Assembly: GCA_039178415.1 (NCBI GenBank)
Contig: JBCDFF010000001.1
Span: forward strand, 1 to 54,258
Direction: 5' to 3'
DNA: 54,258 nucleotides
Source: Bacteroidota bacterium
GTDB lineage: Bacteria; Bacteroidota; Rhodothermia; Rhodothermales; Rubricoccaceae
A program made the translations under genes and the position numbers. Under the pieces are notes generated by a model. The model saw only the letters and a list, made by a program, of their open reading frames with translations, did not search any database and was not told where the DNA came from. This document shows, in pieces, positions 33,538-54,258 of the stretch; position 1 is the stretch's first letter; each line of letters begins with the position of its first letter.

Positions 33538-33553
33538 CGCGTCTCGGATAGCG

Positions 33554-35699: not shown

Positions 35700-37499
35700 T
35701 CAAGCGCTCGCCACTTGGCCGTACCGCGCATAGACCTCGCGCGCCCAGCCACGCAATCCTCGATCCCGCGGCGACACAAGGCCTTCTGCCAGCATCCACT
35801 GGCGCACGGGCGTCGTGAAGCCGGTCTTCGGCCGGTTCAGGACTGCATCTGGAAGAGGAAGCGCAGGAGCTTCGGCCAGACTGTGCTTGCCCAAGTCGGA
35901 GCGTGCAGCCAGCAGGGGGGCGACGCTGCGCAGGAGGTGAATGTCTACGAGAGGAACGCGGACCTCCAGCGAGTGGGCCATGCTTGCCCAGTCGGTGTCA
36001 CGCAGGAGCTGGTTCCGCATGTACCACACCGACTCGAGCGCGGAGACCTTCAGCCGCTTCGTTCGGATAGGCCGAGCGGTTTCCTGAAGGCGCGCGCGCG
36101 TCTCGAGGGTACGCCACCCTTCCCGGACGAGATCGGGGTCCAAGATGTCAGGAAGCTCCCATGGCATGAACATGCCGCGCCGCAGGAGGTAGGCTCCAGC
36201 GTAGTCTGTGCCGTACTCCAGCAGTCCGGCGTACTTGGGCGACGTAAAGCGCCGAAGCATCGGGGCGGAGACGGCTCGCAGGTGCGGGCCAAGCTGGGCT
36301 GCGAGGGGGACTCGGCGCGTGAGCGAGACGAGTTTCGGAATCTCCGTAAAGCTGGGGTAGCCGCCGAACAACTCGTCGCCGCCTAAGCCGGAGACGGCGA
36401 CCTTCAGGCCCGCTTCGGCCGCAGCCCGGCTGACGAAATAGCTGTTCAGGCCGTCAGTCGAGGGCTGGTCCATCGCCGAGAGGAAGCGGCCGGACTCCTG
36501 CTTGAAATCGGACCGTCCGATCCAGACGGTGTCGTGCTGAGCACCGTAGTGGGCCGCCACTTGCTCTGCGAGAGGAACCTCGTCGTTGCTCGTGCCTCGG
36601 TACTCGGCGAACCCGAGCGTGACCGTCCGAAGCTGCCCGCCGACCTCCGAGGCTAGCGCCGCCAGCGCCGTCGAGTCGCGCCCCGACGACAAAAAGACGC
36701 CCACGTCCACGTCGGCAATCAGGTGGTGGCGGACCGTGTCAAGAAGAGCTTGGCGAAGCCGGTCGCGTGCCTCACCGTTTAGATGGATTTCTCTACGCTC
36801 AGCCTCGGAGAGCAGGTCTGGAATAGTGGCGAACGAACGCTCCCGGCGTTGGCCTTCGCTGTCGACCCAGAGCGTGTGCCCAGCAGGGAGCGCTTGGACT
36901 CCCCTGTACAGGGTGTGTGGCTCGGGCACATGCCCCCACAGGAAGAATCCAACGTGTCCTGCCGGATCGGGCGCCGTGTCGACAGCTCCCGCTGCCAATA
37001 GAGCTTTCACCTGCGAGGCGGCGCGGAAGGTTGTCCCGTCGTCTGCCCAGTAGAGCGGCTTGATGCCGTAGGGGTCCCGAGCAAGGAAGAGGCCGCCACG
37101 CTCAGCGTCCCATAGCGCGAAGGCGAACATGCCGCGCAGGTCGTGGACCATCGACTCGCCGTGCTCGGCCCACAGGTGCAGCAGAACCTCCGTGTCCGAA
37201 TGCGACGTAAAGCAATGCCCGCGGCGCTCAAGGTCAGCACGAAGCTGACGGTAGTTGTAGATCTCTCCGTTGAAGCTGATGACCTGCGTGCCCGTGTGGG
37301 ACGGCATCGGCTGAGCGCCCGCCTCAGAGAGGTCGATGATAGAGAGGCGGCGATGACCTAAGCCGGCACGGCCGTCCGGTGCTGTCCACGTACCTGAACC
37401 GTCAGGTCCGCGCAAGGCCATTGCGTCGCAGGCGAGCCCGAGCCATGCTCGGTCCACCTGAGAGTCTCCGTAGGCGAAAGCCGCCGCGATCCCGCACAT
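35700..37499 (-). CDS. asnB: Asparagine synthetase (glutamine-hydrolysing) family amidotransferase, first gene of the minus-strand glycan array
   Basis: MCGIAAAF with the Ntn nucleophile Cys2. SGRDSTALAAL is a PP-loop (SGGxDS-like). The length of 599 aa fits. Confidence 0.9.
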   Translation of the reverse strand: MCGIAAAFAYGDSQVDRAWLGLACDAMALRGPDGSGTWTAPDGRAGLGHRRLSIIDLSEAGAQPMPSHTGTQVISFNGEIYNYRQLRADLERRGHCFTSHSDTEVLLHLWAEHGESMVHDLRGMFAFALWDAERGGLFLARDPYGIKPLYWADDGTTFRAASQVKALLAAGAVDTAPDPAGHVGFFLWGHVPEPHTLYRGVQALPAGHTLWVDSEGQRRERSFATIPDLLSEAERREIHLNGEARDRLRQALLDTVRHHLIADVDVGVFLSSGRDSTALAALASEVGGQLRTVTLGFAEYRGTSNDEVPLAEQVAAHYGAQHDTVWIGRSDFKQESGRFLSAMDQPSTDGLNSYFVSRAAAEAGLKVAVSGLGGDELFGGYPSFTEIPKLVSLTRRVPLAAQLGPHLRAVSAPMLRRFTSPKYAGLLEYGTDYAGAYLLRRGMFMPWELPDILDPDLVREGWRTLETRARLQETARPIRTKRLKVSALESVWYMRNQLLRDTDWASMAHSLEVRVPLVDIHLLRSVAPLLAARSDLGKHSLAEAPALPLPDAVLNRPKTGFTTPVRQWMLAEGLVSPRDRGLRGWAREVYARYGQVASA

Positions 37500-37681
37500 A
37501 GCTGCTTCGTTTCTGATGGCTAGAGGTGCGCGAGGTCACCTTGCTCCTCAGTGGGCTCGTCCACCAGTCCCAGACGGGCTTAGACCTCTGCGGTCAAATT
37601 AAACTTCAAAAATGCAGCCAGAACGAATAATTGCGGAACCCTGATGCAGAGACTGGGCGGCCCAGCAGTGCTAGACGAAGT

Positions 37682-37734: not shown

Positions 37735-38484
37735 CTAGCCCAGGACGGTCATTTTGCGCGTCGCCGTGAAGTCTCCTGCGCGGATGCTGCAGATGTAGAT
37801 CCCGCTGGAGATCCCGTTCTCGGCAGCGAAAGCGACTTCATGCGTGCCCGCGGGCTGCACCTGATCGACGAGCACGGCCACCCGGCGCCCGACCATGTCA
37901 AACACTTCGAGCGTGACGGGGCTCTCACGGGGAAGCTCGTACTGAATCGTCGTCTGGGAGGTGAACGGGTTAGGGAAGTTAGAGTTGAGCGCGAAGGTGC
38001 CCGGCGCTGCCGTCTCGTTCGATACCACCGGCGATGCGGTCATGTCGGACACTACATAGATGGCATTGCTCTCAAACGCCTCGCTCTCGGCGACGACCAG
38101 CGTGTACGTCACAGACACCCCGCCGAAGCCACGGCCATACTCTACGTTTTCGGAGGCGTCCCAGATGGCAAAGCTCAAGGACTCGCCGTCGGTAAAGCCG
38201 TCGGTCACCGCCGTCACAGGACTGTCCCTCCAGGCAACCAGAACAGCATGGTCATTCTGCCAGGTCGCACTGCCGGCGCACACGCCGTCTGGTGTGAAGA
38301 CGGCGAGCTCGTCGCCAGCTTCCAGTTTCGCGCCGCTTATGCTCGCGGTGGCGAGAGGCACAATCACTGTGGCGTTGCTGCCGGTCCGCGCGCTGCACGT
38401 ACTAAAATGAGACTCGGCGTGTGCGGCGGGGACCACGGTGAGGAGAACAGAAATGCTGAAGAGGAGGAAGTTGCGCGTCGTCAT
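37735..38484 (-). CDS. Secreted protein with Por/T9SS C-terminal sorting domain
   Basis: Signal peptide MTTRNFLLFSISVLLTVVPAAHA. C-terminus FPNPFTSQTTIQYELPRESPVTLEVFDMVGRRVAVLVD...GIYICSIRAGDFTATRKMTVL is a textbook T9SS CTD (TIGR04183-like). Confidence 0.8.
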   Translation of the reverse strand: MTTRNFLLFSISVLLTVVPAAHAESHFSTCSARTGSNATVIVPLATASISGAKLEAGDELAVFTPDGVCAGSATWQNDHAVLVAWRDSPVTAVTDGFTDGESLSFAIWDASENVEYGRGFGGVSVTYTLVVAESEAFESNAIYVVSDMTASPVVSNETAAPGTFALNSNFPNPFTSQTTIQYELPRESPVTLEVFDMVGRRVAVLVDQVQPAGTHEVAFAAENGISSGIYICSIRAGDFTATRKMTVLG

Positions 38485-39012
38485 GATCGTAGCGTGGCGT
38501 GTCGTTGCGTTTCGTGCCACGCAGAGCGACAATCGACATACCGCCTCAGCACAGGTCCCGTCTCATTTCTGTTCACCCCCCCATTAGCGAAACCCATCTG
38601 TACCATCGGTGACGCTCGGCTTACAAATCATCCGGTCCAGGTGGCGGGGTATCCCCAAAAGAGAAAAAGACACGAGGTAAATAAATCCCCCGGGAGTGGC
38701 GTTCTGAAATCCACGAACGTTTTGAAATGAACGCGGGGAGAATCGGAACGGCTCTTGCCTGCGCTGAATGCGTCCGCGAGAGCGACGATAAGCCTCCTAG
38801 CGGTCTTCCTGATTCCTCGTTGCGCCAGAAGCCCACGCGCGCTGTGCCTGATGAGGGTAGATAGCGACTCCGAGCATCTGTACCTTGCTCGCTTCCCCTA
38901 CGCTGCCGAATTAACGTTATCAACTCTGGGTGCCCACGCGGAGGGCAGGACCGCATCCCCGCCGCCGACCTCAACATCCAGCCGACCAGACGCCTACCGA
39001 GCGTAACAGCAT

Positions 39013-42413: not shown

Positions 42414-43679
42414 ATGGAGTATTCGGTACTAATCATCCTGATCACGGGCTTCTTCGTCGCCTTCGGTACGACAGGACTGCTGACACCGATCGTGCGCCGC
42501 CTCGCCATCGAGCGGGACTGGGTTGACCACCCGGATGGACACCGTAAGCTCCACACGACCATTGTTCCGGCCGTCGGCGGCATCGCTATCGCCATCGGTT
42601 TTGCCGTAGGGCTGGCGTACCTGCATGCCGTCCGGGACCTGCTGAACTTCGATGTCCAGTTCCCGTCGAGCGCGCTGTGGATAGGAGCCCTCGTCATCGT
42701 AGCGTCGGGCTTCTACGACGACACACGCGGGCTGGGCTTCAAGGGTAAGTTCGCCGTGCAGGTGCTGGTGGCCTATGCCCTGCTCCATGCAGGCTACCGG
42801 ATCGACGTGACGGGGCTGCCGTTCGTGGGAGAGGACCCATACACCCACGCGCTGATCTCGATGCCGCTGACGCTGCTCTGGGTCGTGGGGGTCATCAACG
42901 CGGTCAACCTGCTCGACGGGCTCGACGGGCTCGCGGCCGGCGTTTCGCTCATCGCGTTTGCCTCGCTGGGCCTCATCTTCGGGATGGGCGGCGAACTGGG
43001 GCTGGTCTTGATCGCGCTCATCATCACCGGGGCGCTCGCCGGGTTCTTGCTCTTCAACTTCAACCCGGCCTCCATCTTCATGGGAGACTCCGGGAGCCTC
43101 TTCCTGGGCTACCTGCTGGCGACGTACACCCTCTCCGGCCCGGGGCATGCCGATCCGTGGCTGGCCCTGCTCATCCCGGCTGTGGTGCTCGGCCTTCCGC
43201 TGATCGACACGGCGCTCTCGATCGCGCGCCGCTTCGCGGGACGCCAGGCGATCTTTGCGCCGGACCGCGACCACATCCACCACCGCCTCACGCGGACGTT
43301 CACGCATCGCCAGGCCGTTCTGGTGCTCTACGCGGTTGCGCTCTCGTTCGGCGTGGCGGCCGTGGCGATGAGCATGATGGCAGCCGTCTACAGCGTCGGC
43401 ATAATCGCTGTCATGCTGGTGCTGACCGGTGTAGGTCTGAACAGGCTCAAGTACCTACGCCGCAGCTACGTCGAGCCAGACGTGCATTCCATCGGTGGAT
43501 TCTTGGAGCGCGAGGAGGAGCCCGCTTCTGCACCGTTCGAGGCGGCGGACGCGCGCGACGAGGACGTGCTGGCGGAACCGGTGGCGGCTGGCACGGGCAA
43601 CGGCAGGGTGCACGACGGGCACGGTACCGAGCGAGCCGGCTCGAGGTCGGATTTCAACATGTCGGGTGCTACATCCTGA
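42414..43679 (+). CDS. wecA: Undecaprenyl-phosphate HexNAc-1-phosphate transferase (WecA/TagO, MraY-like GT4 family)
   Basis: VDHPDGHRKLH, FYDDTRGL, NAVNLLDGLDGLAAG and NFNPASIFMGDSGSLFLGY are the conserved WecA/MraY-family motifs. Confidence 0.85.
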   Translation: MEYSVLIILITGFFVAFGTTGLLTPIVRRLAIERDWVDHPDGHRKLHTTIVPAVGGIAIAIGFAVGLAYLHAVRDLLNFDVQFPSSALWIGALVIVASGFYDDTRGLGFKGKFAVQVLVAYALLHAGYRIDVTGLPFVGEDPYTHALISMPLTLLWVVGVINAVNLLDGLDGLAAGVSLIAFASLGLIFGMGGELGLVLIALIITGALAGFLLFNFNPASIFMGDSGSLFLGYLLATYTLSGPGHADPWLALLIPAVVLGLPLIDTALSIARRFAGRQAIFAPDRDHIHHRLTRTFTHRQAVLVLYAVALSFGVAAVAMSMMAAVYSVGIIAVMLVLTGVGLNRLKYLRRSYVEPDVHSIGGFLEREEEPASAPFEAADARDEDVLAEPVAAGTGNGRVHDGHGTERAGSRSDFNMSGATS

Positions 43680-43836: not shown

Positions 43837-44127
43837 ATGATCACAGAGCAATCGACCATTGCCGTAACTCAAGGCCTGACGGCTGCCGACCTCGGCGGAG
43901 AAGCCGTTGTGCTGGACCCTAACTCAGGCCGTTACTACGGCCTCAACGAGTTGGGCGCGCGGATATTCGACCTCGCGAGGAAGCCGCGCTCGGTGGAGTG
44001 GATCATGGAAGCGCTGCTCCAGGAGTACGACGTGGAAGAGCGCAAACTAAAGGAAGATCTGTTGGCCTTCTTGCACGAGATGGAGCAGCGTCAACTCATC
44101 GAGGTCACCGATGGACCTGCTGCGTAA
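43837..44127 (+). CDS. PqqD-family RiPP recognition element (lasso peptide B1)
   Basis: About 96 aa. AADLGGEAVVLDPNSGRYYGLNELGARIFDL...LLQEYDV....L..DLLAFLHEMEQRQLIEV is the PqqD/RRE pattern. Overlaps B2 by 17 nt. Alternative GTG start at 43825. Confidence 0.8.
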   Translation: MITEQSTIAVTQGLTAADLGGEAVVLDPNSGRYYGLNELGARIFDLARKPRSVEWIMEALLQEYDVEERKLKEDLLAFLHEMEQRQLIEVTDGPAA

Positions 44128-44557
44128 GTTCGCCGGCCGCACCTGGGCCGACAAGCGGCTCCTGCTGCGCTCGCTCGCTCTCGTGGTGGGGGTGCGGGCT
44201 GGCCTCTGGGTGTTGCCGTACCGTACGGTTCAGCGTCTGGTTGAAGCAAAGCCGGGCCCCGTGCCCCCCGTAAGCACGCGGGACGGGGCTCCCTACCAGC
44301 GGCGCGTCGTAGCCGCCGTAGAATCTGTGGGGCGGCGGCTGCTCGGCGACAAGCCATGCCTAGTCCAAGCGCTCGTGGCGCAGCGGTTGCTGCGGCAGGG
44401 CGGGTACGAGACCTCGCTGCACCTCGGAGTCGCTAAAGACGGGCGGAAGCTCCTCGCGCACGCGTGGCTCGAACGCGACGGCTACGTGGTGATTGGCGGC
44501 GGACGATCGCAGTTTCAGTACACGCCGCTCAGCCCGGTCGGGCCGGACGCCGCGTGA
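44111..44557 (+). CDS. Lasso peptide leader protease B2 (transglutaminase-like Cys protease)
   Basis: KPCLVQALVAQRLLRQGGYETSLHLGV......LLAHAWLERDGYVVIG shows the Cys...His-containing McjB C-terminal-like motif. Its stop overlaps the cyclase GTG (GTGA). Confidence 0.8.
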   Translation: MDLLRKFAGRTWADKRLLLRSLALVVGVRAGLWVLPYRTVQRLVEAKPGPVPPVSTRDGAPYQRRVVAAVESVGRRLLGDKPCLVQALVAQRLLRQGGYETSLHLGVAKDGRKLLAHAWLERDGYVVIGGGRSQFQYTPLSPVGPDAA

Positions 44558-46677
44558 GTGCTGTTGCCGGGCTATACCATCTGAACGGTCAGGGCGCGGA
44601 CCAGGACGCGCTGCGCCGCATGGTTGATGCGATGCCGCACTGCGGGCCGGACGGTGCCGAGGTGTGGAGCCGGGGACCGGTAGGCCTCGGGCACCGGATG
44701 CTCCACACGACGCCTGAGTCGCTGCACGAAGTCCTACCGCTGGCGAACGCCGCCGGCACGCTCGCAGTCACTGCCGACGCCCGGATCGACAACCGGGCCG
44801 AACTGCTGGAGCAACTGCATCTCGGCGACAGCGAAGAATCAGTCACGGACAGCGCGCTCATCCTCGCGGCCTACGAGACCTGGGGCGAGCAGTGCCTCGA
44901 TCACCTCGTCGGCGACTTCGCCTTCGCCATTTGGGACGAGGCGGCGCAGCACCTCTTCTGCGCGCGCGACCACTTTGGTGTCCGGCCGTTCTACTATCAT
45001 CACCGGGCGGGCCGGCATTTCGCGTTCGGTACTGAGATCAAGGCGCTGCTTGCCGTCCCCGGCGTGCCGCAGCGGCTCAACGAGGTGCGCCTCGCGGACT
45101 TTCTCGCCACGATGCGGGAGGACCCGGAGAACACGATCTACCAGGAGGTCTTCCGGCTGCCTGCCGCACACGCGCTCGTTGTCTCGCCCGATGCGCTGCG
45201 GGTCTGGCGCTACTACACCCTCGCCCCAGCGACCGATGTTCCGCCGGACGCCTCCGACGCGGAGTACGAAGCGCGCTTCCGGGAGCTGTTCACCCAGGCC
45301 GTTCGCGCTCGGCTCCGCAGCGCATTTCCCGTCGGCTCCGAGTTGAGCGGCGGCATGGACTCCTCGTCGATCACGGCAGTCGCAGGGCAGATCATGGCGG
45401 ACGAGGGGAAGCCGCTCCACACGGTCTCGCTGGTCTACGACGACATCGAGGCGTGCGACGAGAGCCCCTTCATCAACGCCGTACTGGAGCAGGAGGGCGA
45501 CTTCGTTCCACACTTCGTCAAGGGCGACCGGCTCGGCCCGCTCTCCAACCTGGACGACGTGTACACGTATCTCGACGACGGCCTCGCCAGCGGCAACCAG
45601 CACCTGGTCTGGGCGGCGAAAGCCGCCGCGGGCGATGCCGGGATCCGCGTGCTGCTCGACGGCCTCGACGGCGACAACGTGGTGGGGCATGGGTTGCTCT
45701 ACCTCAAGGAGCTCGCCGAGACAGGCGACTGGGAGGCGTTCGCGCGCGAGAGCAAAGCGGCGGCGCGGCAGTTCCAACGCACCGAGCAGCGCCACAACTT
45801 CGAGGACAGCTTCGCTAGCCTCGACACCGCCTTCAACCGCTTCGGCCTGGCGCGCCTCCAGACCCTGGCCGACGAAAGCCGTTGGGGGGCGTTCTTCAAG
45901 GAGCTGGCGGCTGCCGAGCGGCTCTTCGGGGTGAAGCGCTCGGACGTGCTGCGGCTCCTGTGGCGGCGGCTCGTGCAGCCGGCGGCGCTTCTGCGCGCGC
46001 GCGACGCCCGGCGGAACGACAGCAACAATGCGGCGCGCCCCAAGCCGCTGCTTCCGCTCCTCGACCCGGACTTTGCCGAGCGTATCGGGATGGCCGAGCG
46101 TCTGCAGCGCTTCGAGGACCAGAAGCCAAACCTGACGACGGTACGGGACGTGCAGCGCCAGCTCCTGAACGGCTCGCGGATCCAGACGGCGCTCGAACTC
46201 ACGACGCATGCGAGCGCGGCCCACGGGATCGAGATCCGGCACCCCTTCTTCGACAAGCGGCTCGTCGAGTTCTGCCTCGCGCTGCCGCCGGGGCAGAGCC
46301 TGAAAGACGGGTGGACCCGGTCCATCCTGCGCCGCGCGCTCGGCGGCATCCTGCCGGAGAAGGTGCAGTGGCGCGTCGGCAAGGCGTGGCTCGCGCCGAA
46401 CTTCGAGCGCGGGCTCTACGAGCAGGACCGGGCACTGCTTGACGAGCACGTCGCGGACCTCGGCCCGCTGCGCCCATACGTGGACAAGAGCGTAGTCGAT
46501 GGCCTCTACCGCAGGGGAAAAGACGTTCCCAATATCGAGCAGGCACAGCTCGCTCGCATCACCACGCTCTCGTTCTGGCTGAAGAAGCGCTTCCCGACCT
46601 TAACGGAAGGTGAGACGCTGGCCTCGTCCGGCGGGTGCGACGGCGACCGCGGAGCCACGGTGCCTCAGGGGCCGTAG
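44554..46677 (+). CDS. Lasso peptide cyclase (asparagine-synthetase-like, McjC type)
   Basis: AsnB-like throughout (SELSGGMDSSSI PP-loop), but the N-terminus is (V)SAVAGLYHL, with Ser where AsnB has the glutaminase Cys2, as in lasso cyclases. Flanked by B2 and the precursor. Confidence 0.85.
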   Translation: MSAVAGLYHLNGQGADQDALRRMVDAMPHCGPDGAEVWSRGPVGLGHRMLHTTPESLHEVLPLANAAGTLAVTADARIDNRAELLEQLHLGDSEESVTDSALILAAYETWGEQCLDHLVGDFAFAIWDEAAQHLFCARDHFGVRPFYYHHRAGRHFAFGTEIKALLAVPGVPQRLNEVRLADFLATMREDPENTIYQEVFRLPAAHALVVSPDALRVWRYYTLAPATDVPPDASDAEYEARFRELFTQAVRARLRSAFPVGSELSGGMDSSSITAVAGQIMADEGKPLHTVSLVYDDIEACDESPFINAVLEQEGDFVPHFVKGDRLGPLSNLDDVYTYLDDGLASGNQHLVWAAKAAAGDAGIRVLLDGLDGDNVVGHGLLYLKELAETGDWEAFARESKAAARQFQRTEQRHNFEDSFASLDTAFNRFGLARLQTLADESRWGAFFKELAAAERLFGVKRSDVLRLLWRRLVQPAALLRARDARRNDSNNAARPKPLLPLLDPDFAERIGMAERLQRFEDQKPNLTTVRDVQRQLLNGSRIQTALELTTHASAAHGIEIRHPFFDKRLVEFCLALPPGQSLKDGWTRSILRRALGGILPEKVQWRVGKAWLAPNFERGLYEQDRALLDEHVADLGPLRPYVDKSVVDGLYRRGKDVPNIEQAQLARITTLSFWLKKRFPTLTEGETLASSGGCDGDRGATVPQGP

Positions 46678-46791
46678 CCATAAGGTGGCTCGGGGCCTTT
46701 GGCACAGTACGTGATGCCGGGCTATGTTCTGCCCTGCGGGCTTCCGCTTCGCAGACCTTCACCGTCCCCATTCACCAAGCGGTACTTCACC

Positions 46792-46980
46792 ATGAAGACC
46801 TACAGCGCACCCATGCTCACCGAGTACGGCGACGTGGCCGCGATCACGGCGACGCTGGGCGACCCCTTCACGGGCGACCAGTCGTTCGACGTGGACGGCA
46901 ACGTGATCGAGGAAGGACTCAACTCGATCAACCAGTGCCCGACGCTCGAGTTCGAGACGTGCCACTTCGAGAACCCGTAG
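46792..46980 (+). CDS. Lasso peptide precursor (62 aa)
   Basis: MKTYSAPMLTEYGDVAAITATLGDPFTGDQSFDVDGNVIEEGLNSINQCPTLEFETCHFENP. The leader fits YxxPxLx3Gx5Tx exactly (Y4,P7,L9,G13,T19). A Gly-x5-Asp (GDPFTGD) macrolactam candidate follows. Located immediately after the cyclase gene. Confidence 0.7.
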   Translation: MKTYSAPMLTEYGDVAAITATLGDPFTGDQSFDVDGNVIEEGLNSINQCPTLEFETCHFENP

Positions 46981-47016
46981 CAACGGCTACGGCACTCGGT
47001 TGCAATGCACGACACG

Positions 47017-47052
47017 GCGAAGGCTCCAGGGACTCTTCCCCGGAGCCTTCGC
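47017..47052 (+). terminator. Strong stem-loop 37 nt downstream of the precursor stop (attenuator / mRNA-stabilising hairpin candidate)
   Basis: gcgaaggctcc (47017-47027) pairs perfectly with ggagccttcgc (47042-47052), with extra ggg/ccc pairing inside. No U-tract follows. Confidence 0.45.
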
Positions 47053-47130
47053 TAAAGTGAGGCGTTTGGGCCTCGCGTATCCACCCGTTTCATCCCCAGG
47101 GTCCCGCCGCCTGAAGCTCGCCTCCACCTC

Positions 47131-48045
47131 ATGCACCGTTACAAGGCTTTCGGACTTTCGATCCACTCAGACATCGCGCTCTCCGGTTTCGCCCCGGGCA
47201 GCAGCCTGCCGGACATTACGATCCAGAAGGGCGACCTGCGCGTGCGGAAGACGGCACCGGGCGCGCGGCACGGGAACGTCGTCTCGGGGCACATCAAAGA
47301 GGACCACTGGGACCTGGACCTCCTCTTCCACATCCAGGGCGGCGAGGTGGTCACCTACGACACGCTGAAGCCGCTCTCCGAGGACCTGCTCCGCAGCTTC
47401 GTGCAGGGCGCGCTCCTGGCCGCCGTCCTGCGGCAGCGGCACCTCCTCGTGCTTCACGGCTCGGCGGTCTCCGACGGCGAGCAGGCCATCGCCTTCCTCG
47501 GCAACTCCGGCTGGGGCAAGTCCACGCTCGCCGAATACTTCTGCCAGCGTGGGTACGAACTCATCACCGACGACGTGATGGTGGTCGTCCCCGGCACTGA
47601 GGCCGAGCCGGCGCGCATCCCCCCGGGCGTCAAGCAGGTCCGCCTCCGCCCCCATTCCGCTGAGCGGCTTGTCGAGGACTACGAGAGCCTCCCGCTGGTC
47701 ACTGAGGTCTCGGCCAAGCGCCTGCGCGTTCTAAAGGGCGAGGAGGTGCGGTCGATACCCCTGTCGAAGCTGTACATTCTGCAGCGGCAGACGGCCGACG
47801 CGAACCGCATCACGCCGCTGGACCCGCAGCAGGTCCCGCTTCACTGCGTCGCCCACACGCACGCCACCAACTGGATCACCGACCCTGAGTACGTCTCGGA
47901 GCACTTCAGGCAGTGCGCCCAACTCGCCAAGCACACGCCGGTCGCCCTCCTGGAGCGTATCCTGTCGCTCGACGCGCTCCCGGATATCTACGACCTCGTC
48001 ACGGCCGACGTCGACGAGCTCTCCGCGAGTGAGCAGCCCACCTAA
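47131..48045 (+). CDS. HPr-kinase-like serine kinase associated with lasso clusters
   Basis: LVLHGSAVSDGEQAIAFLGNSGWGKSTLAEYFCQRGYELITDD matches the HprK C-terminal P-loop domain pattern seen in lasso-associated kinases (PadeK/ThcoK type). Confidence 0.7.
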   Translation: MHRYKAFGLSIHSDIALSGFAPGSSLPDITIQKGDLRVRKTAPGARHGNVVSGHIKEDHWDLDLLFHIQGGEVVTYDTLKPLSEDLLRSFVQGALLAAVLRQRHLLVLHGSAVSDGEQAIAFLGNSGWGKSTLAEYFCQRGYELITDDVMVVVPGTEAEPARIPPGVKQVRLRPHSAERLVEDYESLPLVTEVSAKRLRVLKGEEVRSIPLSKLYILQRQTADANRITPLDPQQVPLHCVAHTHATNWITDPEYVSEHFRQCAQLAKHTPVALLERILSLDALPDIYDLVTADVDELSASEQPT

Positions 48046-48056
48046 GCAGTCCCCCG

Positions 48057-49991
48057 ATGACAGCAGCGCAAACGTGGCGGCACAGAGCCGATGACCTGAA
48101 GCTGCGGGCCTCCTACGTGCGGATGGCCCTCCGGCTGATCTGGTCGGCGGCGAGCACCTGGACGGTGCTATGGTTCGCGCTGCTCGCGGTGCAGGGCACC
48201 CTCCCGGCGGCGGTCGTCTACCTCACGAAGTGGCTCGTCGACAGCCTCGCCGCAGCGGTGGCCGGAGAGGTCGGCCTCGGCGCGGTGATCGCGCCGGCCG
48301 CACTGATGGGCGGCATCATGATCCTCCAGCGCGTCCTCGGCGGGATCAACGAGTGGGTCTCGACGGCCCAGGCCGAACTCGTCGGGGACCGGGTGAAGGA
48401 GCTCGTCCACGAGAAGGCGACCGAGGTGGACTTCGGGTTCTACGAGTCGGCGGACTACCACGACAAGCTGGAGCAGGTCAACTCGCAGGCCAACAGCCGC
48501 GTGCTCCAGCTCCTCAAGAACATCGGCGGGCTGCTGCAGGCGGCTGTGACGCTGCTCTCGATCTCGGCGATCCTGCTCAGCTACAGCCTGTGGCTCCCGC
48601 TCGTGCTCATCGTGAGCACGCTGCCCGCGTTCTTCGTCGTCGTGCGGCACAACAAGAAGTACCACGCGTGGTGGAAGGGGTCGACCGCCCGCCGCCGCCT
48701 CGCGCAGTACTTCGACCTCATGGTGACCTTCGACGCCTCGGCGGCCGAGGTGCGGATCAACAACACGGGCACCTACTTCCGCACGCGCTACATGGCGCTG
48801 CGCAAGGCGCTGCGCGAGGAGCGGCTCGACCTCCTCAAGCGGCAGGTGCTGGCGCGGCTCTTCGCTACGTTCCTCGGCCTCCTCGCCACCGCCGGCGCGA
48901 TGCTCTGGGTGGTGCTCCGGGCGACGCGCGGCGCGGCCACGCTCGGCGACCTCGCTCTCTTTTACCAGGCGTTCAATCAGGGCCAGGCACTCGTCGGCGG
49001 GCTGCTCCAGAACATGGGGCAGATCTACACCAACACGCTCTTCCTAGAGCACCTCTTCGATTTCCTCGACCAGGAGAACGCCCTCGAAGAATCCGAGGCA
49101 CCGACGCCGTTCCCGGCCCGGATCGACGAAGGGGTCCGGTTCGAAGACGTTTCCTTCAGCTATCCCGGTTTCGAGCGGAAGGCCCTCGAAGGGTTCAGCC
49201 TTACGATCCCGGCCGGCAAGATCGTCGCCATCGTCGGCGAGAACGGGGCGGGCAAGAGCACGTTCATCAAGCTCCTCTGCCGGTTCTACGACCCGACGGC
49301 CGGGCGCATCACAGTCGACGGGACCGACCTCCGCGACTTCGCGCAGGCGGACCTCCGCCGCCACGTCTCGGTGATGTTCCAGGTGCCGATGAAGTACCAG
49401 ATGACGGCCGAGCAGAACATCCGCCTCGGCGACCTCGCCCGCGAGACGGGCCGCGACGCGGTCCAGGCGGCGGCGGTCGGCGGCGGGGCGCACGAGGTGA
49501 TCCAGAAGCTGCCGCAGACCTACGACCAGGTGCTCGGGCGCTGGTTCGAGACGGGGAGCGAACTGAGCGGGGGCGAGTGGCAGCGCGTGGCGCTCTCGCG
49601 GGCGTTTTTCCGCGAGGCCCCCATCGTCGTCCTCGACGAGCCGACGAGTTCGATGGACTCGTGGGCCGAGAACGAGTGGCTGGCACGGTTCCGACGGATG
49701 GTCGAGGGCCGAACGGCGCTGCTGATCACGCACCGCTTCACAACCGCGATGCAGGCCGACGTCATCCACGTCATGGACGCTGGCCAGGTCGTCGAGACGG
49801 GCACGCACGACCAACTGCTGGCCCTCGGCGGGCGCTACGCGGCGTCGTGGCGCGCCCAGATGCGGCAGGAGGAAGGCACGGTCGAGTCGATCGCGGGCGA
49901 GTCCGTCCTCGGCGACGGCCTCGCGGGGGAGGAAGCCGCCGGCGTGCATCCGACCCTCGACGCGGACGCGGAGCCGCCCTCGGTGCGATGA
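48057..49991 (+). CDS. Fused TMD-NBD ABC exporter (McjD-like lasso exporter/immunity)
   Basis: Six N-terminal hydrophobic segments. Walker A GENGAGKST, signature LSGGEWQR, Walker B IVVLDEPTS. Confidence 0.9.
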   Translation: MTAAQTWRHRADDLKLRASYVRMALRLIWSAASTWTVLWFALLAVQGTLPAAVVYLTKWLVDSLAAAVAGEVGLGAVIAPAALMGGIMILQRVLGGINEWVSTAQAELVGDRVKELVHEKATEVDFGFYESADYHDKLEQVNSQANSRVLQLLKNIGGLLQAAVTLLSISAILLSYSLWLPLVLIVSTLPAFFVVVRHNKKYHAWWKGSTARRRLAQYFDLMVTFDASAAEVRINNTGTYFRTRYMALRKALREERLDLLKRQVLARLFATFLGLLATAGAMLWVVLRATRGAATLGDLALFYQAFNQGQALVGGLLQNMGQIYTNTLFLEHLFDFLDQENALEESEAPTPFPARIDEGVRFEDVSFSYPGFERKALEGFSLTIPAGKIVAIVGENGAGKSTFIKLLCRFYDPTAGRITVDGTDLRDFAQADLRRHVSVMFQVPMKYQMTAEQNIRLGDLARETGRDAVQAAAVGGGAHEVIQKLPQTYDQVLGRWFETGSELSGGEWQRVALSRAFFREAPIVVLDEPTSSMDSWAENEWLARFRRMVEGRTALLITHRFTTAMQADVIHVMDAGQVVETGTHDQLLALGGRYAASWRAQMRQEEGTVESIAGESVLGDGLAGEEAAGVHPTLDADAEPPSVR

Positions 49992-50590
49992 GACTCCCGC
50001 AGTGGCTCGCCTACGGACTCGCCCCCGCCGTCCTCGTGCTCGGCGTGGCCCTCCAGCGCTACAACGTGGCGGTCCACGACCAGACGAAGTGGACCGGCGG
50101 CGGCTTCGCTATGTTCTCGACGGTCGACGTGCCGGGCGCGCGCGCGCTCCGCGCCTACGTGGTCACGGACCAGGGCGAGGCGCTCGCGGTCGAGCCCGAC
50201 TACGGCATCGAGCGGCGGCTCGTCTACACCCAGCCTAAGCAGGAGCGTCTCCACGCCGTAGCCCAGCACCTCGCCGCCCAGACCTGGCGCGTCTACGATG
50301 CCTCGACGTACCTGGAGGTCTGGCCGTCGCTCCCGGACTTTCTCCAGCGCTACTTCCAGCGCTCCGACGCCTGGCAGGCTGCCTGGACAGACTCGGCTTC
50401 CACCGAGGGTCTCTACCCCGGCCACCTCGCCTTCGCTGCACGCCGCGCGCCGTACAACGGGCGCCCGGCAGAGGTCGCGATCACCGGTGCCCGCGTCGAG
50501 GTCTGGAAGCCCGTCTTCGACCCCGACGCCGAGGAGCTCAGCTGGCAGCGGATCGCCGAGGCTACGGCGCAGACGGCCTCGGCCGAGTAA
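49988..50590 (+). CDS. Small N-terminally anchored protein (possible SdpA/DUF5819-like), copy 2
   Basis: The ATG at 49988-49990 overlaps the ABC exporter TGA (49989-49991). MRLPQWLAYGLAPAVLVLGVAL is a TM helix. The KWTGGGFAMFSTVD motif is shared with 4914-5585. The N-terminal 606 codons of ORF 48170-50590 are an out-of-frame shadow of the ABC gene. Confidence 0.5.
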   Translation: MRLPQWLAYGLAPAVLVLGVALQRYNVAVHDQTKWTGGGFAMFSTVDVPGARALRAYVVTDQGEALAVEPDYGIERRLVYTQPKQERLHAVAQHLAAQTWRVYDASTYLEVWPSLPDFLQRYFQRSDAWQAAWTDSASTEGLYPGHLAFAARRAPYNGRPAEVAITGARVEVWKPVFDPDAEELSWQRIAEATAQTASAE

Positions 50591-50596
50591 GTACGC

Positions 50597-51508
50597 ATGG
50601 ACGCGTCCGCCCAAACGCCCACCGTGTCACCCCCGCCCGAAGGCGGCCTGCGCGCCCTCGTCCGGCGTCCGGTCGACGCCCTCCTCCGGGCTGATCTCTT
50701 CGAGCTAGGCGCGGCGATGACGCTCCTGATGATCGTGCTGTCGCTGCACGAGCCGTCGTGGCCGGTCAAGCTCGGGCTCGTGACGCTCACCGCGACGGCG
50801 CTCGTGCTGCGCCCGCTGATGCGGAACCCGCTGCTGTGGCTCGGCCTCGTCGGCGTCCTCGTGCTGGCCTACACCCAGACGTGGTACCAGCAGAACAACC
50901 ACGACTACCTCAAGCTCTACTGGTGCCTCGGCGTCGGGGTCTCGCTCCTCGCCGCCGAGCCGCTGCGGGCGGTGCGTGTCAACGCCCGCATTCTCATCGG
51001 GCTCTGCTTCCTGTTTGCGACCGTCTGGAAAGCCGTCTCGGTGGACTACATGAGCGGCGCGTTCTTCAACTACTTCCTCCTCCAGGACACGCGCTTCGAA
51101 CTCTTCGCCGACCACCTCGTCGGCCTCGACCCGAGCGTGCTGATGCAGGAACGTGCTGGCCGGGTGTTCTACACCGCGTTCGGCGATCCGGCGGGTGTGC
51201 TCGCCGTGCCGTTCGCGGCCGAAGCCCGGTGGCTCGGGGTTGCGATGACGTGGTGGACACTCCTCATCGAGGGGGCCGTAGCTCTGGCCTTTCTCCTCCC
51301 GGCGCGGTTCACCCTGGCGAAGTGGCGCGACGCCGTGCTCCTGGTGTTCATCTTCTCGACCTACTTCATCGCTCCCATCCTCTACTTCGCATGGCTCATC
51401 ACAGCGATGGGCCTGATCCAGTGCGAGCGGGAGACGTTCCGCTACGCTCCGGTCCTGTATGTGGCAGCCTTCGTGCTCGTCCTGATGCGGTTTTACCTTC
51501 CAGTATGA
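50597..51508 (+). CDS. Polytopic membrane protein, HTTM-like (vitamin K gamma-carboxylase/SdpB-like), copy 2
   Basis: QQNNHDYLKLYWCL, LFATVWKAVSVDYMSGAFF, MTWWTLLIEGAVALAFLL. Colinear with 3971-4903 over the whole length. Confidence 0.6.
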   Translation: MDASAQTPTVSPPPEGGLRALVRRPVDALLRADLFELGAAMTLLMIVLSLHEPSWPVKLGLVTLTATALVLRPLMRNPLLWLGLVGVLVLAYTQTWYQQNNHDYLKLYWCLGVGVSLLAAEPLRAVRVNARILIGLCFLFATVWKAVSVDYMSGAFFNYFLLQDTRFELFADHLVGLDPSVLMQERAGRVFYTAFGDPAGVLAVPFAAEARWLGVAMTWWTLLIEGAVALAFLLPARFTLAKWRDAVLLVFIFSTYFIAPILYFAWLITAMGLIQCERETFRYAPVLYVAAFVLVLMRFYLPV

Positions 51509-52671
51509 CGAACAACGCGGGGCTAGGTGCGGCTCCCCGACCGGCGCGGCGCGGAAGGCGGGTGGTGCGCCTCGGCCTGCGTGTGGCCGAGGTCGCACTC
51601 GTCGGCCTGCTCATCATGGCCTTCACGGCGGCCTACGTGCCCCCGGACACGCTCTGGTGGGGGCAGTTTGTCGCCATCTTCAGCGGCCTGCTGCTCGCCA
51701 TCGTCGCGGTCGTCGCAGCCATCGCTGCGGTCAAGCGGCAGTGGCGGCGGGCCGCGCTGCACGCCTCGCTCCTCACCGGTGCCCTGCTGATGCCCGCTCT
51801 CAGCGCCCGCCCTGACCCGGTCCCCGCCCCGCCCGACGCGCCGGGGCTGACCGTGATGACGTTCAACGCGAGCGTGCGGCACGCCGGCAGCGAGCAGGAC
51901 GCCCTCGCCGCCCTCCTGGCCCGCGACAAGCCCCACCTCATCGCGCTCCAGGAATTCTCCATCCGCCTGATCCGCGAAACGGGCGTCACGATGGGCGCGC
52001 CGCTGCTCGGGCCGCTGCTCAAGGACCGGGCGTACGAAGCGTCCTGGCCCGACACCGAGGGCAAGGACTACCTCTTCAGCCGTCCGATCTTCTCGCGCAT
52101 CCAGGCGCAGGAGCAGGGCGAGGTCCTGGCCGGCGACCCCCCGACAGGTCCTCGGTCCGGCGGACTGTGGTCCTCTGGCGGCATCACGCGCCGGCTCTAC
52201 CGGTGGGACGGCCGGACAATCGCCCTCTACAACGTGCACCTCCACTCGTTCAGCAGCCACCGCCCGTGGCGCGAGGCGGACGAGCGGTTTTCGCTCCGGG
52301 CCTGGGCGGACGCGCTCCAGGACTACCGCCGGGACTTCGAGGTGCGCGCCGAGCAGGCCCGCGTCCTGCGACGCCTCCTGGATGAGGAAGCGCATCCGTT
52401 CATCGTCTGCGGCGACTTCAACAGCACGCCTCGAAGCTGGGTCTACGCCTACCTCCAGCAGGGCCTCCGCGACGCGTTCCGGGAGGCCGGATCGGGATGG
52501 GGCGCTACGTTCCCCGCGCGCCTTCCGCTCATCCGCATAGACTATCTCCTCGTCAGCGATGCGTGGTCCGTGCGCCGGGCCTACGTAGACACCGGCCTGG
52601 CCTCCGACCACCGACCGGTCATCGCAGAGCTCGTGCTGCGGACGGAGCCGGAACCGACCGCGAACCGGTAG
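51505..52671 (+). CDS. Membrane-anchored endonuclease/exonuclease/phosphatase (EEP) family protein
   Basis: The ATG overlaps the HTTM gene stop (ATGA). There are 2-3 N-terminal TM helices. Then LTVMTFNA..., IALQEF, VCGDFNSTP and LASDHRPVIAEL, the EEP catalytic motifs. Confidence 0.75.
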   Translation: MTNNAGLGAAPRPARRGRRVVRLGLRVAEVALVGLLIMAFTAAYVPPDTLWWGQFVAIFSGLLLAIVAVVAAIAAVKRQWRRAALHASLLTGALLMPALSARPDPVPAPPDAPGLTVMTFNASVRHAGSEQDALAALLARDKPHLIALQEFSIRLIRETGVTMGAPLLGPLLKDRAYEASWPDTEGKDYLFSRPIFSRIQAQEQGEVLAGDPPTGPRSGGLWSSGGITRRLYRWDGRTIALYNVHLHSFSSHRPWREADERFSLRAWADALQDYRRDFEVRAEQARVLRRLLDEEAHPFIVCGDFNSTPRSWVYAYLQQGLRDAFREAGSGWGATFPARLPLIRIDYLLVSDAWSVRRAYVDTGLASDHRPVIAELVLRTEPEPTANR

Positions 52672-52861
52672 AGACTGAGCCGTGCCTGGACGCCCCACGC
52701 AGCCCGTGAATATCTTACGTCGCACCACCTCGACGGGGCACCAGGCGACGCGCGGGCTCCCCCTGTCTTGAGAAATAACATCTCGATGCCCTCGTTAGAA
52801 CCAGCCACGGCGGGGCCGCGAACAGTGCTCCGACGCATAGCCAGTCCTTAAAAACAGCTCG

Positions 52862-53989
52862 ATGGCGACCATACACCCCGACGAGGCCGGCGCACGACCA
52901 GAATACAAGGCCCTAGTGCTCTGCTGCCGGACCGAGCTGACGCCCGCACACGCCGACCACCTCGCGCGGTACCTGAGCGACGAGGATTTGCAGTGGAACT
53001 ACCTGGTCACGCTGGCCGGGTACCACGGGGTGCAGCCGCTGCTCTACTGCCACCTCCGGAGCATGGAAGAGCACTTGCTCTCTGAGAAGCACATGACGTG
53101 GCTGCGCGGCGTCGTCGGGGCACGCTCGGCTCACAGCCTGGTGCTGATGCAGGAGCTAGGCCGCCTAACCGAACTCTGTGCTCAGCAGCACCTCCCCATG
53201 CTCGCAGTGAAAGGGGCGGTCCTGGCCCAGAGTGTGTACGGCGGCGTTGCCCTCCGGCCCTTCGCAGACATCGACCTCGTGATCCGGCGCGAGGACTTTA
53301 CGCACCTGGAGACGCTGCTCCGGCAGCAGGGCTACGGATCCAGGAAGATGAGCCCGTTCCAGAAGACGAGCTACCTCTACATCAACGGCCAGTACACCTT
53401 CTGGCGGCGCATCCCGAGCCTGGGCGAAGCCGCCGCGTTCATCGACGTGCACACCGCCATCATGCCGCCGGGCTACGCCTACTCGGAAAACTTCGACGCA
53501 CTGACGGCGCGCTCCGTGACCGTGCCGGTTGCCGGACGCCAGGTGCCGACGCTCGGGCGCGAGGACCTGCTCCAGGTGATCTGCTACCACGGCTTCAAAA
53601 ACCGGTGGGACCGGTTCAAGTACATCTGCGACCTCGCCGAGCTGATCCGCGCGTCCCCGGACATGGACTGGGAAGCAGCGTACCACCGGATGCACGCGAT
53701 GCGCAGCCGGCGCGTACTCCGGCTGGGCCTGTTCCTCGCCTCCGCGCTGCTGGACGCTCCGCTGCCCAGGCAGGTCTGGGAGGACGTGCGGGAGGACCGC
53801 CGCGTCAGGGACATCGGGCACGCCATCATCGACCGGCTGCCCAGACAGGCCCACATCAAGGTGGAGCCCTACTGGGAGCGCGTGCGGCTCAACGTCTTGG
53901 CGCAGGACACAGTCGGGGGCGGGCTCCGGTACGGGGCGTATTCCGCCGCCCGCAAAGTGACCGACCTGTACCTGCCTGCAGGCGAGTAG
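52862..53989 (+). CDS. Uncharacterised nucleotidyltransferase family protein (NTP_transf_5-like)
   Basis: LAVKGAVLAQSVYGGVALRPFADIDLVIRREDFTHLETLLRQQGY is the hallmark block of this family, which is known to accompany kinase-containing lasso clusters. Confidence 0.6.
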   Translation: MATIHPDEAGARPEYKALVLCCRTELTPAHADHLARYLSDEDLQWNYLVTLAGYHGVQPLLYCHLRSMEEHLLSEKHMTWLRGVVGARSAHSLVLMQELGRLTELCAQQHLPMLAVKGAVLAQSVYGGVALRPFADIDLVIRREDFTHLETLLRQQGYGSRKMSPFQKTSYLYINGQYTFWRRIPSLGEAAAFIDVHTAIMPPGYAYSENFDALTARSVTVPVAGRQVPTLGREDLLQVICYHGFKNRWDRFKYICDLAELIRASPDMDWEAAYHRMHAMRSRRVLRLGLFLASALLDAPLPRQVWEDVREDRRVRDIGHAIIDRLPRQAHIKVEPYWERVRLNVLAQDTVGGGLRYGAYSAARKVTDLYLPAGE

Positions 53990-54011: not shown

Positions 54012-54258
54012 CTACTGCGGCGCGGGGCCGGACTGGCTCTGCTCCCACCGTATGGCGAACTGCAGGAGTTCGGTCACCGTCTCAAACCCCAGCTTCTCCT
54101 TCGCCCGGCGGCGGTATGTCTCGACCGTCTTCCGACTCAGGTTCAGGCGCTCGGCGATCTCCTCGGTCGGCTTGCCCTGGCCCAGCATCTGGAAGACCGC
54201 CATCTCGCGGTCGGTCAGGTCCTCCAGCCCCGGCGTCGACTCCCCGAGCCTGGCCGCG
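54012..54258 (-). CDS. LuxR/FixJ-type HTH regulator, C-terminal part (partial, continues beyond the right edge)
   Basis: LTDREMAVFQMLGQGKPTEEIAERLNLSRKTVETYRRRAKEKLG is the GerE/LuxR HTH. The reading frame stays open to position 54258. Confidence 0.8.
   Translation of the reverse strand, partial: AARLGESTPGLEDLTDREMAVFQMLGQGKPTEEIAERLNLSRKTVETYRRRAKEKLGFETVTELLQFAIRWEQSQSGPAPQ

Follow-up and report, generated by a model that had tools for sequence, protein, structure and literature searches.

The window analysed here is a stretch of 54,258 nucleotides from a Rhodothermales bacterium (phylum Bacteroidota; assembly GCA_039178415.1, contig JBCDFF010000001.1), and toward its right end it carries a set of genes for a lasso peptide. 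A sequence-only reading of this DNA had described six tightly packed genes as a complete operon ending at position 49991: a PqqD-type leader-binding protein (B1), a transglutaminase-like protease (B2), an AsnB-like cyclase (C), a precursor peptide (A), a kinase (K) and an ATP-binding cassette (ABC) exporter (D). Inspection of the DNA placed all six on the plus strand, at the coordinates and in the order that had been given, with a 17-nt overlap between B1 and B2 (44111-44127) and with the sequence GTGA shared by the B2 stop (TGA) and the C start (GTG at 44554). The claim of completeness did not survive, as four more conserved genes, X200, X303, EEP and N, follow up to 53989 (Table 1). X200, X303 and EEP are translationally coupled, with 4 nt of overlap or a gap of 6 nt between neighbours, and N starts 190 nt after EEP. 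The overlaps of 17, 4, 4 and 4 nt fit an operon, and as read from the DNA the conserved unit is B1-B2-C-A-K-D-X200-X303-EEP-N, ten genes from 43837 to 53989 and not a unit that ends at 49991. Family assignments were made with the curated cut-offs of Pfam and NCBIfam, with scores in bits. For comparison, 106 loci of about 1 Mb in total were fetched and are referred to by L-numbers: L003, L005, L015 and L019 are enzyme-carrying lasso loci from four different Rhodothermales genomes, L026 is a more distant Rhodothermales cluster with a kinase 41% identical to that of the window, and L024 is a locus of Brasilonema octagenarum.

Table 1. Features of the lasso-peptide locus and its surroundings in the window.
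Feature	Description	Positions	Strand	Basis or placement
B1	PqqD-type RiPP (peptide made on the ribosome and modified after translation) recognition element, leader-binding chaperone, 96 aa	43837-44127	+	PF05402
B2	Transglutaminase-like Cys protease for leader removal, 148 aa	44111-44557	+	PF13471, NF033537
C	Macrolactam-forming lasso cyclase of 707 aa, AsnB homologue lacking Cys2, GTG start	44554-46677	+	NF033535, PF00733
A	Precursor, 62 aa; leader 1-20, predicted core T21-P62	46792-46980	+	NF033528, NF033521
Hairpin	GC-rich palindromic hairpin without T-tract	47016-47053	+	Fold z-score, conserved stem; about 36 nt past the A stop
K	HprK/PEPCK-fold P-loop serine kinase (tailoring), 304 aa	47131-48045	+	Fold and motifs
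D	Fused permease-ATPase ABC exporter, 644 aa	48057-49991	+	ABC_tran
X200	Protein of 200 aa without Cys, assigned to no family	49988-50590	+	Start overlaps D stop (ATGA)
X303	Polytopic membrane protein, 303 aa	50597-51508	+	6 nt after X200
EEP	Endonuclease/exonuclease/phosphatase-family phosphoesterase, 388 aa	51505-52671	+	PF03372; 4-nt overlap with X303
N	'Uncharacterised nucleotidyltransferase', 375 aa	52862-53989	+	PF14907
WecA/MraY-type GT4	Initiating glycosyltransferase	42414-43679	+	PF00953, 136.8 bits; directly upstream of B1
GerE	GerE/LuxR-type helix-turn-helix regulator, cut by the window end	54012-54258	-	GerE, 49.1 bits; convergent
X303'/X200'	Paralogue pair, opposite edge of the glycan island	4004-4804 and 4968-5552	-	tblastn, 44% / 32% identity

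The enzymes of the core set were assigned with little ambiguity. B1, whose ATG start at 43837 was checked in the DNA, scored 66 bits against the PqqD family (cut-off 23.4) and 69.6 bits against the lasso-specific model NF033536 (lasso_PqqD_Bac), under its cut-off of 80; the protein is 83-94% identical in L003, L005 and L019. B2 scored 77.6 bits against PF13471 (Transglut_core3; cut-off 26) and 90.7 bits against NF033537 (lasso_biosyn_B2; cut-off 33), and the Cys/His motif that the sequence-only reading had pointed out is present, with the catalytic residues at Cys83 (CLVQA) and His117 (HAW). C reached 767.8 bits against NF033535 (lass_lactam_cya, lasso isopeptide bond-forming cyclase; cut-off 525), its residues 1-677 aligning end to end with positions 1-667 of the 668 in the model, and 157 bits against Asn_synthase. 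Its N-terminus, MSAVAG, has Ser in place of the Cys2 nucleophile, as had been proposed, and SGGMDS stands at residue 265. D is indeed a fused ABC exporter (ABC_tran 112.5 bits; MsbA-like TIGR02203 283 bits, under the cut-off), with five hydrophobic segments, a Walker A motif at 394 and LSGG at 503. The searches with PF05402, PF13471 and PF00733 that had been suggested as checks of the earlier reading thus all returned matches. A cyclase lacking Cys2, separate B1 and B2 proteins, and a precursor with Thr at position -2 and Asp at position 9 place the locus in the split-B class of lasso biosynthetic gene clusters, and by each criterion testable by sequence it is a lasso-peptide cluster.

The precursor A passed two NCBI precursor models, NF033528 (lasso_cyano; 35.8 bits, cut-off 33) and the lasso leader model NF033521 (lasso_leader_L3; 25.5 bits, cut-off 19), in agreement with the description of a 62-residue peptide with a canonical lasso leader. 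The leader reads Y4..P7.L9...G13.....T19-A20 (YxxPxLx3Gx5T-A). A word-indexed search of 5.8 billion proteins returned 32 homologues of 58-79 aa, and a full hidden Markov model (HMM) scan of 1.84 billion representatives at E <= 0.001 gave 43 matches, part of them spurious repeat proteins; the large repeat proteins P0193 and P0217, considered as precursor fusions, were rejected as spurious multi-repeat matches. Among the 32 homologues the core is better conserved than the leader, with T19, T21, L22, G23, P25, F26, T27, G28, D29, S31, F32, D33, D35, G36, N44, S45, Q48, C49, T51 and C57 invariant. Synonymous variation is present at codons 21-29 (pS 0.44) while nonsynonymous variation there is low (pN 0.036; pN/pS 0.08), which shows that selection acts on the peptide; over core codons 21-51 pN/pS rises to 0.37, and the leader has 0.42.

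To a wider depth, 25 divergent long precursors from unrelated sources, each linked to a related kinase, were aligned, and the only invariant columns were Y4, P7, G13, T19, D29 and S45, with column 21 variable. In three divergent subfamilies T-A is followed by nine residues ending in Asp: TLGDPFTGD in the window, FSFDSSKKD in Brasilonema and DSRENSTAD in L026. From this shared pattern, together with the invariant T19 and D29, we predict a cut after A20 and a ring between Thr1 and Asp9 of the core. The predicted core is then 42 aa long, with a ring of T21-D29 and 33 residues after the ring Asp, and it contains 9 acidic and 0 basic residues. It ends in ...HFENP; Pro62 is at least 90% conserved, and none of the 32 homologues ends in Ser. 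A has exactly two Cys, C49 and C57, both past the ring and invariant in the 32 homologues, and by analogy with class IV lasso peptides we infer that they form a tail-tail disulfide loop that would prevent unthreading. The segment between D29 and S45 follows the pattern hydrophobic-x-hydrophobic-x-(N/D)-G-x-x-hydrophobic across subfamilies, and the post-ring xSFDVDGNVIEE of the window is probably a beta-hairpin loop. Its SxDxDGN had been considered as an EF-hand-like Ca2+ site, an idea that was dropped in view of the F-x-N-G-x-x-V/I carried by related subfamilies, which is a better fit to a beta-turn.

The cluster is kept as a unit in relatives. The ten-gene order is complete in L003, L005 and L019, and the order in L015 is the same from the end of C onward, the earlier genes being absent because that contig begins inside C. 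Protein by protein, the nearest relative, L003, is 85-94% identical. L026 keeps B1-B2-C-A-A-K, the exporter, EEP and N, plus the upstream type IX secretion system (T9SS), Wzz and GT4 genes. Between K and D of that locus lies a gene for a 387-aa polytopic protein (11297-12460, plus strand) with a weak GT-C/PMT_2 match of 24 bits, just under the cut-off, a hint that glycosylation accompanies such peptides; the window has no gene at this place. Beyond the Rhodothermales, the order B1-B2-C-A-K-D-N was found in Brasilonema and in most of the 34 long metagenome loci (7 kb or more) with a related kinase, and N is present in 26 of these 34, usually after D. Judged by this distribution, K and N form a tailoring pair conserved throughout a broad clade of lasso clusters, EEP is specific to the Rhodothermales, and X200 and X303 were seen in the close Rhodothermales group only. 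A 426-aa protein stands between D and N in the Brasilonema locus (12849-14129, plus strand), with a weak phosphoribosyltransferase (PRTase)-like region and a second PqqD-type recognition domain at its C-terminus (42.8 bits); it suggests a further leader-guided tailoring step, absent from the window.

We analyzed the putative tailoring enzymes through their motifs, a structure model and their relatives. By sequence, K is the least secure of the core assignments. K carries GNSGWGKST at 124-132, TDD at 146-148 and LHG at 108, and a model built on 26 homologues had a predicted local distance difference test score (pLDDT) of 92.7 and a predicted TM-score (pTM) of 0.90. In Foldseek searches with this model the best matches were ATP-dependent phosphoenolpyruvate carboxykinases (PEPCK; E ~2e-8, TM-score by query [TMq] 0.5-0.57), followed by HprK/P at E 4e-5 (TM-score by target [TMt] 0.54), and the profile of the K family matched HprK in the PDB at E 3e-5. 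The modelled K thus has the PEPCK/HprK P-loop kinase fold, and the description of an HprK-like P-loop kinase was borne out. PDB sequence and profile searches for a lasso-kinase structure (ThcoK, PadeK) returned only the P-loop region of HprK and generic ABC P-loops. Of the named relatives, the nearest (33-38% identity) are proteins of cyanobacteria called 'serine kinase'; among the 120 matches listed were Rhodothermales, cyanobacteria and metagenomes, and no Firmicutes.

For the characterised lasso kinases PadeK, ThcoK and PsmK, the substrate is the linear precursor and its C-terminal Ser the only residue phosphorylated (PMC8498205, PMC6993621). The window precursor lacks this C-terminal Ser, which defines substrates of the paeninodin/pseudomycoidin type. 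The sequence-only reading had assigned the cluster to the split-B architecture with a PadeK/ThcoK-type kinase; the architecture stands, and the kinase label is too specific, because Pro is the last residue of the precursor and the Ser that it conserves lies further in. Besides the ring Asp, S45 is the sole invariant core residue of the 25 kinase-linked precursors. It sits in a G/N-S-x-D/N motif that lies 4 to 24 residues before the C-terminus in the aligned precursors (17 in the window) and that is often trailed by C-x6-8-C. As the only non-ring invariant core residue in peptides encoded directly upstream of the kinase, S45 is the best candidate phosphosite, and from this conservation pattern we regard it as the likely one for K. 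Two Asp residues essential in PsmK, D158 and D159 (PMC6993621), correspond to the DD of TDD in K. N scored 177.5 bits against its family (cut-off 31.2) and has the DxD motif DID at 136-138. In the pseudomycoidin pathway, PsmN decorates the phosphate placed by PsmK with one or two hexoses, its D134 and D136 being essential (PMC6993621); the likening of K and N to PadeK, ThcoK, PsmK and PsmN is through published descriptions, and the assignment of PsmN to PF14907 is inferred from the wording of that paper. With low confidence, and by analogy, a phospho-glycosyl group on S45, which would lie near the exit of the tail from the ring if the segment before it is a beta-hairpin, could act as a plug, the role that Zyubko et al. 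proposed for the C-terminal modification of pseudomycoidin (PMC6993621).

A second class of kinase-linked precursors was observed, with short cores of 14-17 aa and a conserved G-S whose distance from the C-terminus is 2-4 residues, as in ...DALSGSSIL and ...DGMTGSIITA. These are metagenome loci with the precursor upstream of the kinase gene (L058, L063, L064, L069, L072, L076, L077, L086-L089 and L103). Read from these sequences, the internal-Ser rule may be general outside Firmicutes and Proteobacteria.

In four Rhodothermales genomes, a scan for A returned 22 loci, four of which carry the enzymes (one per genome); no lasso enzyme was found within 10 kb of the remaining precursor loci. The genomes hold approximately 10, 7, at least 6 and 6 precursor copies, tandem copies included, with five in tandem in L013. 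Distances between orphans and cluster on the 3.5-Mb chromosome CBDCCX010000006.1 are 49 kb, 356 kb, 0.94 Mb and 1.87 Mb. The orphans have the look of functional genes and keep their synteny from genome to genome, beside unrelated genes (RseP-like protease, DNA polymerase III delta, PepF, GT4, SpoIIE-GAF, T9SS cargo). That the orphans have one neighbour in common, for instance a receptor or a further enzyme, was considered and dropped, since only T9SS Laminin_G_3 cargo and GT4 recur and most neighbours are housekeeping genes. All 26 complete copies examined have an intact open reading frame (ORF), the full leader and the ring, and most are preceded at 8-12 nt by a Shine-Dalgarno (SD)-like sequence and followed at 40-60 nt by a GC-rich hairpin. 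Differences between copies are concentrated after C49, in the disulfide loop and tail, and some orphans diverge at otherwise conserved sites (S31A/T, S45C). Because the conserved leader is hard to explain otherwise, B1 and B2 likely act on the orphans in trans. By synteny with L010 and L019, another precursor copy is expected 2-3 kb past the left end of the window.

The hairpin after A recurs with the precursor genes. Its region folds with z = -3.46 overall, and the stem AGGCTCCGRGG...CCYCGGAGCCT is nearly the same in ten aligned cluster and orphan copies, with compensatory changes at 3 pairs; copies were located at L003 10233-10257, L004 10238-10263, L006 10245-10270, L008 10247-10272, L015 707-732 and L016 10246-10270. 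The pattern occurs once in the window (0 expected), and across the 106 loci its exact form was found solely a short way downstream of precursor genes. The hairpin probably serves as a partial terminator or stabilises the A transcript, and it could also be a terminator or stabiliser duplicated along with the gene, or a protein-binding palindrome. A scan for sigma-70 and terminator consensus sequences missed it for want of a T-tract and gave a weak promoter-like site at 46699-46728, which is not relied on. At gathering thresholds, Rfam found only two tRNAs in the window, and at the cluster it matched neither a known riboswitch nor a leader RNA.

Of the genes downstream of D, EEP is the best defined, with 72.2 bits against its family (cut-off 24.5) and two N-terminal transmembrane helices (27-45 and 55-73); by the positive-inside rule its catalytic domain would be cytoplasmic. 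It is kept in L003, L005, L015 and L019 and is 46% identical in L026. X200 is 71-79% identical at the same position in the same four close relatives; no significant Pfam, NCBIfam or PDB sequence match was found for it, permissive E-values included. Its N-terminus is hydrophobic by eye, and a hydrophobicity scan at its threshold called no segment. X303 has 38 homologues in the 5.8 billion proteins, a small family limited to such loci. Its model (pLDDT 86) had no significant fold match in the PDB, the sole coherent one being weak, to the vitamin-K gamma-carboxylase transmembrane (HTTM) domain (TMq 0.41-0.43, probability ~0.9, E 0.25) and taken as no more than a lead; a profile search of the PDB gave no match, and NCBIfam and PDB sequence searches nothing significant. 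Weak MauE matches were seen in 6 of 22 X303 relatives (best E 0.002), and X303 of the window has no Pfam match. A role of X303 and X200 as MauE-like disulfide catalysts was considered and is weakened by the lack of Cys in X200 and by Cys residues in X303 that are not invariant.

The cluster adjoins a glycan locus, as had been described. From ~4 to 43.7 kb the window is a single large polysaccharide island with many GT4 genes, three sulfotransferases, a carbamoyltransferase, Wzm/Wzt, an AsnB-type amidotransferase and a Wzz/GNVR/P-loop protein. The WecA-type GT4 gene at its right border stands in the same position in L003, L005, L019, L026 and L060. On the other side of the operon, the GerE gene has a counterpart in the same position in L026, and homologous ORFs (FAM 6) follow the cluster in L005 and L019. 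The GC content of 0.62-0.71 over most of the window fits the high-GC genome that had been noted, and the T9SS-exported protein was found again, with a Por_Secre_tail sorting domain of 32.4 bits (cut-off 27), at 37738-38562 on the minus strand where 37735-38484 had been read. The proposed Bacteroidota/Rhodothermota-like host is likewise upheld, as all genome-assigned relatives of the precursor are from Rhodothermales metagenome-assembled genomes.

Several features of the island were recorded beside these. The paralogue pair X303'/X200' adjoins a GT4 gene (5649-7385) and a carbamoyltransferase gene (6965-8779), and in L006, L008 and L010 such a pair lies ~7 kb from an orphan precursor, so that precursor genes flank the ~50-kb island on both sides in relatives. 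The sulfotransferase and Wzm/Wzt genes, all on the minus strand (8920-10146, 30290-31249, 32626-33606, 31253-32596 and 33557-34534), suggest from their families that the island makes a sulfated, perhaps carbamoylated, polysaccharide. Lasso clusters of Firmicutes sometimes include a sulfotransferase; those of the window are 10 kb or more away on the opposite strand, and no link is drawn to the peptide. A second gene of the Asn-synthase family (35703-37535, minus strand; GATase_7 155 bits, Asn_synthase 190 bits), 30% identical to C and with orthologues at the left edge of L005 and L019, probably codes for a sugar amidotransferase and not a second cyclase. A 359-aa protein (18600-19676, minus strand) has a weak phosphoribosyltransferase-like match of 19.6 bits, under the cut-off, and is mentioned only in view of the PRTase-like protein in the cyanobacterial lasso cluster. 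Just after two tRNA genes (tRNA-Asn 125-200, minus strand; tRNA-Leu 411-495, plus strand), a 1098-aa ORF without Pfam match (717-4013, plus strand) has a GC content of 0.55-0.61 against ~0.67 elsewhere and may be acquired DNA at the island edge. A second segment of lower GC (10001-14000; 0.58-0.60), with GT4 genes and a 512-aa ORF without Pfam match (11024-12559, minus strand), looks like a swapped-in cassette.

Taken together, we consider it very likely that the window holds an intact ten-gene Rhodothermales lasso operon working along the following lines. By homology to characterised lasso systems, B1 would bind the leader YxxPxLx3Gx5T-A, B2 would cleave after Ala20, and C, with ATP, would join the N-terminus of Thr21 to the side chain of Asp29, giving a 9-residue macrolactam with the tail threaded through it; D would export the product, predicted to be a strongly acidic peptide of 42 aa with a 33-residue tail. 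In our proposal K would phosphorylate the linear precursor at the internal Ser45, N would decorate this phosphate, with hexose by analogy with PsmN, and the membrane-tethered EEP could plausibly trim or reverse the phosphodiester near the exporter. The same enzymes probably process the orphan precursors too, yielding a small repertoire of related lasso peptides.

Several points weigh against parts of this proposal and bear on the readings that compete with it. A 33-residue tail and Thr, Phe or Asp as first core residue lie outside the characterised lasso peptides, and with such an atypical tail and first residue the product might be trimmed, or cut after Leu22. In the latter case Thr21 would be the -2 residue, and a 40-aa core, GDPFTGD..., would close a ring between Gly1 and Asp7, on the same Asp as before. 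Gly is the canonical first lasso core residue, the Rhodothermales family has T21, L22 and G23 without exception and Gly is common at that column more widely, Gly1-Asp7 rings exist (huascopeptin is an example cited in PMC13352647), and Ile can stand for Thr at -2 (PMC10368454). The leader spacing, Gx5T-x before the core, puts the cut after residue 20 instead; T19 is invariant in 25 of 25 precursors while column 21 may hold T, V, D, F, I, L, A, M or G, column 23 is F, R, V or N in four subfamilies and so not always Gly, and the characterised kinase-linked lasso peptides have 9-residue rings (PMC6993621). We therefore hold a cut after Leu22 to be unlikely. The same low standing is given to the possibility that K, N and EEP act elsewhere, be it on another residue, on a glycan or lipid carrier, in immunity or in regulation, and leave an unmodified class II/IV lasso peptide. 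The C-terminal Ser that defines the substrates of characterised lasso kinases is absent, and K scores under the family cut-offs (Hpr_kinase_C 22 against 33.3 bits; HprK_rel_A 31.8 against 200). The conservation of S45 could reflect folding or recognition by C rather than phosphorylation. Moreover, the cluster is embedded in a glycan island of ~40 kb, and EEP, X200 and X303, with paralogues or neighbours among glycan genes, may serve the polysaccharide locus; for X200 and X303, paralogues beside GT4 and carbamoyltransferase genes raise the possibility that they belong functionally to the island. Against this, K directly follows A, and N follows D, in most of the 34 loci, in unrelated taxa with no shared glycan context; outside the ring, the internal Ser is the one core residue that never varies across kinase-linked loci; and the analogous pair PsmK/PsmN acts on a peptide (PMC6993621).

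Only one precursor gene lies within the window, and 'one enzyme set per genome' rests on flanks of ±10 kb and a single kinase homologue per genome. If the dispersed genes were not substrates, they would be duplicates in decay, or else small proteins, secreted or cytoplasmic, that do something separate, as their distance from any enzyme, their housekeeping or glycan neighbours and the divergence of some copies at S31 and S45 might suggest. This we regard as very unlikely: every complete copy has kept its reading frame, leader motif and invariant ring, the low ring pN/pS being a mark of strong purifying selection, most of these syntenic genes have their SD-like sequence and hairpin, and a conserved leader would be purposeless without B1 and B2. 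A fuller scheme can be drawn in which one B1/B2/C/K/N set matures 6-10 dispersed precursors into products of ~40-47 residues, which would be the longest lasso peptides known, locked by a tail disulfide loop and by a phospho-glycosyl group on an internal Ser at the exit of the ring, and functionally tied to the sulfated-glycan island with its precursor genes on either side, as acidic peptides associated with the envelope or its glycans and not classical antibiotics; as a whole we hold it to be unlikely.

The cluster itself is unsurprising, as any RiPP miner would flag it, and what would interest a specialist is the conserved core of 42 residues, the Ser conserved at an internal position and the repertoire of precursors at dispersed loci. 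If the product is as encoded, the size limit of lasso peptides would be extended from 33 to ~42 residues. If S45 is modified as proposed, the kinase/nucleotidyltransferase pair can target an internal Ser near the threading point, which would offer a direct test of the 'post-translational plug' idea raised for pseudomycoidin, and if the orphans are substrates, this would be the first case found of one lasso enzyme set serving many dispersed precursors. Our literature search, with most subscription journals outside its coverage, returned no paper on lasso peptides of Rhodothermales/Rhodothermota or of cyanobacteria and none on orphan lasso precursors, in keeping with the claim that few have been characterised from this lineage. 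Lasso peptides are valued as ultra-stable scaffolds, and the invariant ring and loop, joined to a C-terminal module that varies, would lend themselves naturally to display or engineering as a template. For genome-mining tools, the simple signature of the broad, uncharacterised B1-B2-C-A-K-D-N clade, D9 plus G/N-S-x-D/N, could be taken up.

Among characterised systems, paeninodin and pseudomycoidin share with the window the split B1/B2, the C protein, the ABC exporter, an HprK-like P-loop kinase with a DD metal site and a 9-residue ring closed on acidic residue 9 (predicted in the window); pseudomycoidin further shares a nucleotidyltransferase with DxD at about residue 135, matched as a family by description. 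The gene order differs, B1-B2-C-A-K-D...N in the window against C-A-K-B1-B2-(N)-D, and their cores have ~23 aa whereas the predicted 42-aa core of the window has a tail with a Cys pair. EEP, X200, X303, the Pro end and the internal Ser are found in the window only, in a Gram-negative Rhodothermales host as opposed to Firmicutes. According to a 2026 review, pandonodin is the longest lasso peptide, with 33 aa and an 18-aa tail, and class IV is defined by a tail-tail disulfide (PMC13352647). Both have, like the window peptide, a long tail with two Cys able to close a loop below the ring, the window core being predicted at 42 aa with 33 residues past the ring and a putative disulfide. Pandonodin is proteobacterial, has a fused B protein and is not known to come with a kinase or nucleotidyltransferase. 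The dispersed repertoire resembles the logic of prochlorosins, in which one enzyme set serves distant precursor genes sharing a leader (5-9 here). Prochlorosins are of another RiPP class and their cores are hypervariable, whereas most of the Rhodothermales core, its ring and loop, matches the leader in conservation, variation being confined to the C-terminal loop and the tail.

On present sequence comparisons, the window system has its relatives among uncharacterised cyanobacterial clusters, the ones modelled as lasso_cyano and lass_lactam_cya. The Brasilonema octagenarum locus has the same B1-B2-C-A-K-D-...-N backbone, with 61-aa precursors that carry the same leader, Asp9, G-S-x-D and a C-terminal C-x7-C. 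Identities are 31-43%, the core sequences are unrelated outside these motifs, and a PRTase-like/second PqqD fusion takes the place of X200, X303 and EEP. Their extra precursors lie in cis (L037, L040), in contrast to the dispersed ones of the Rhodothermales.

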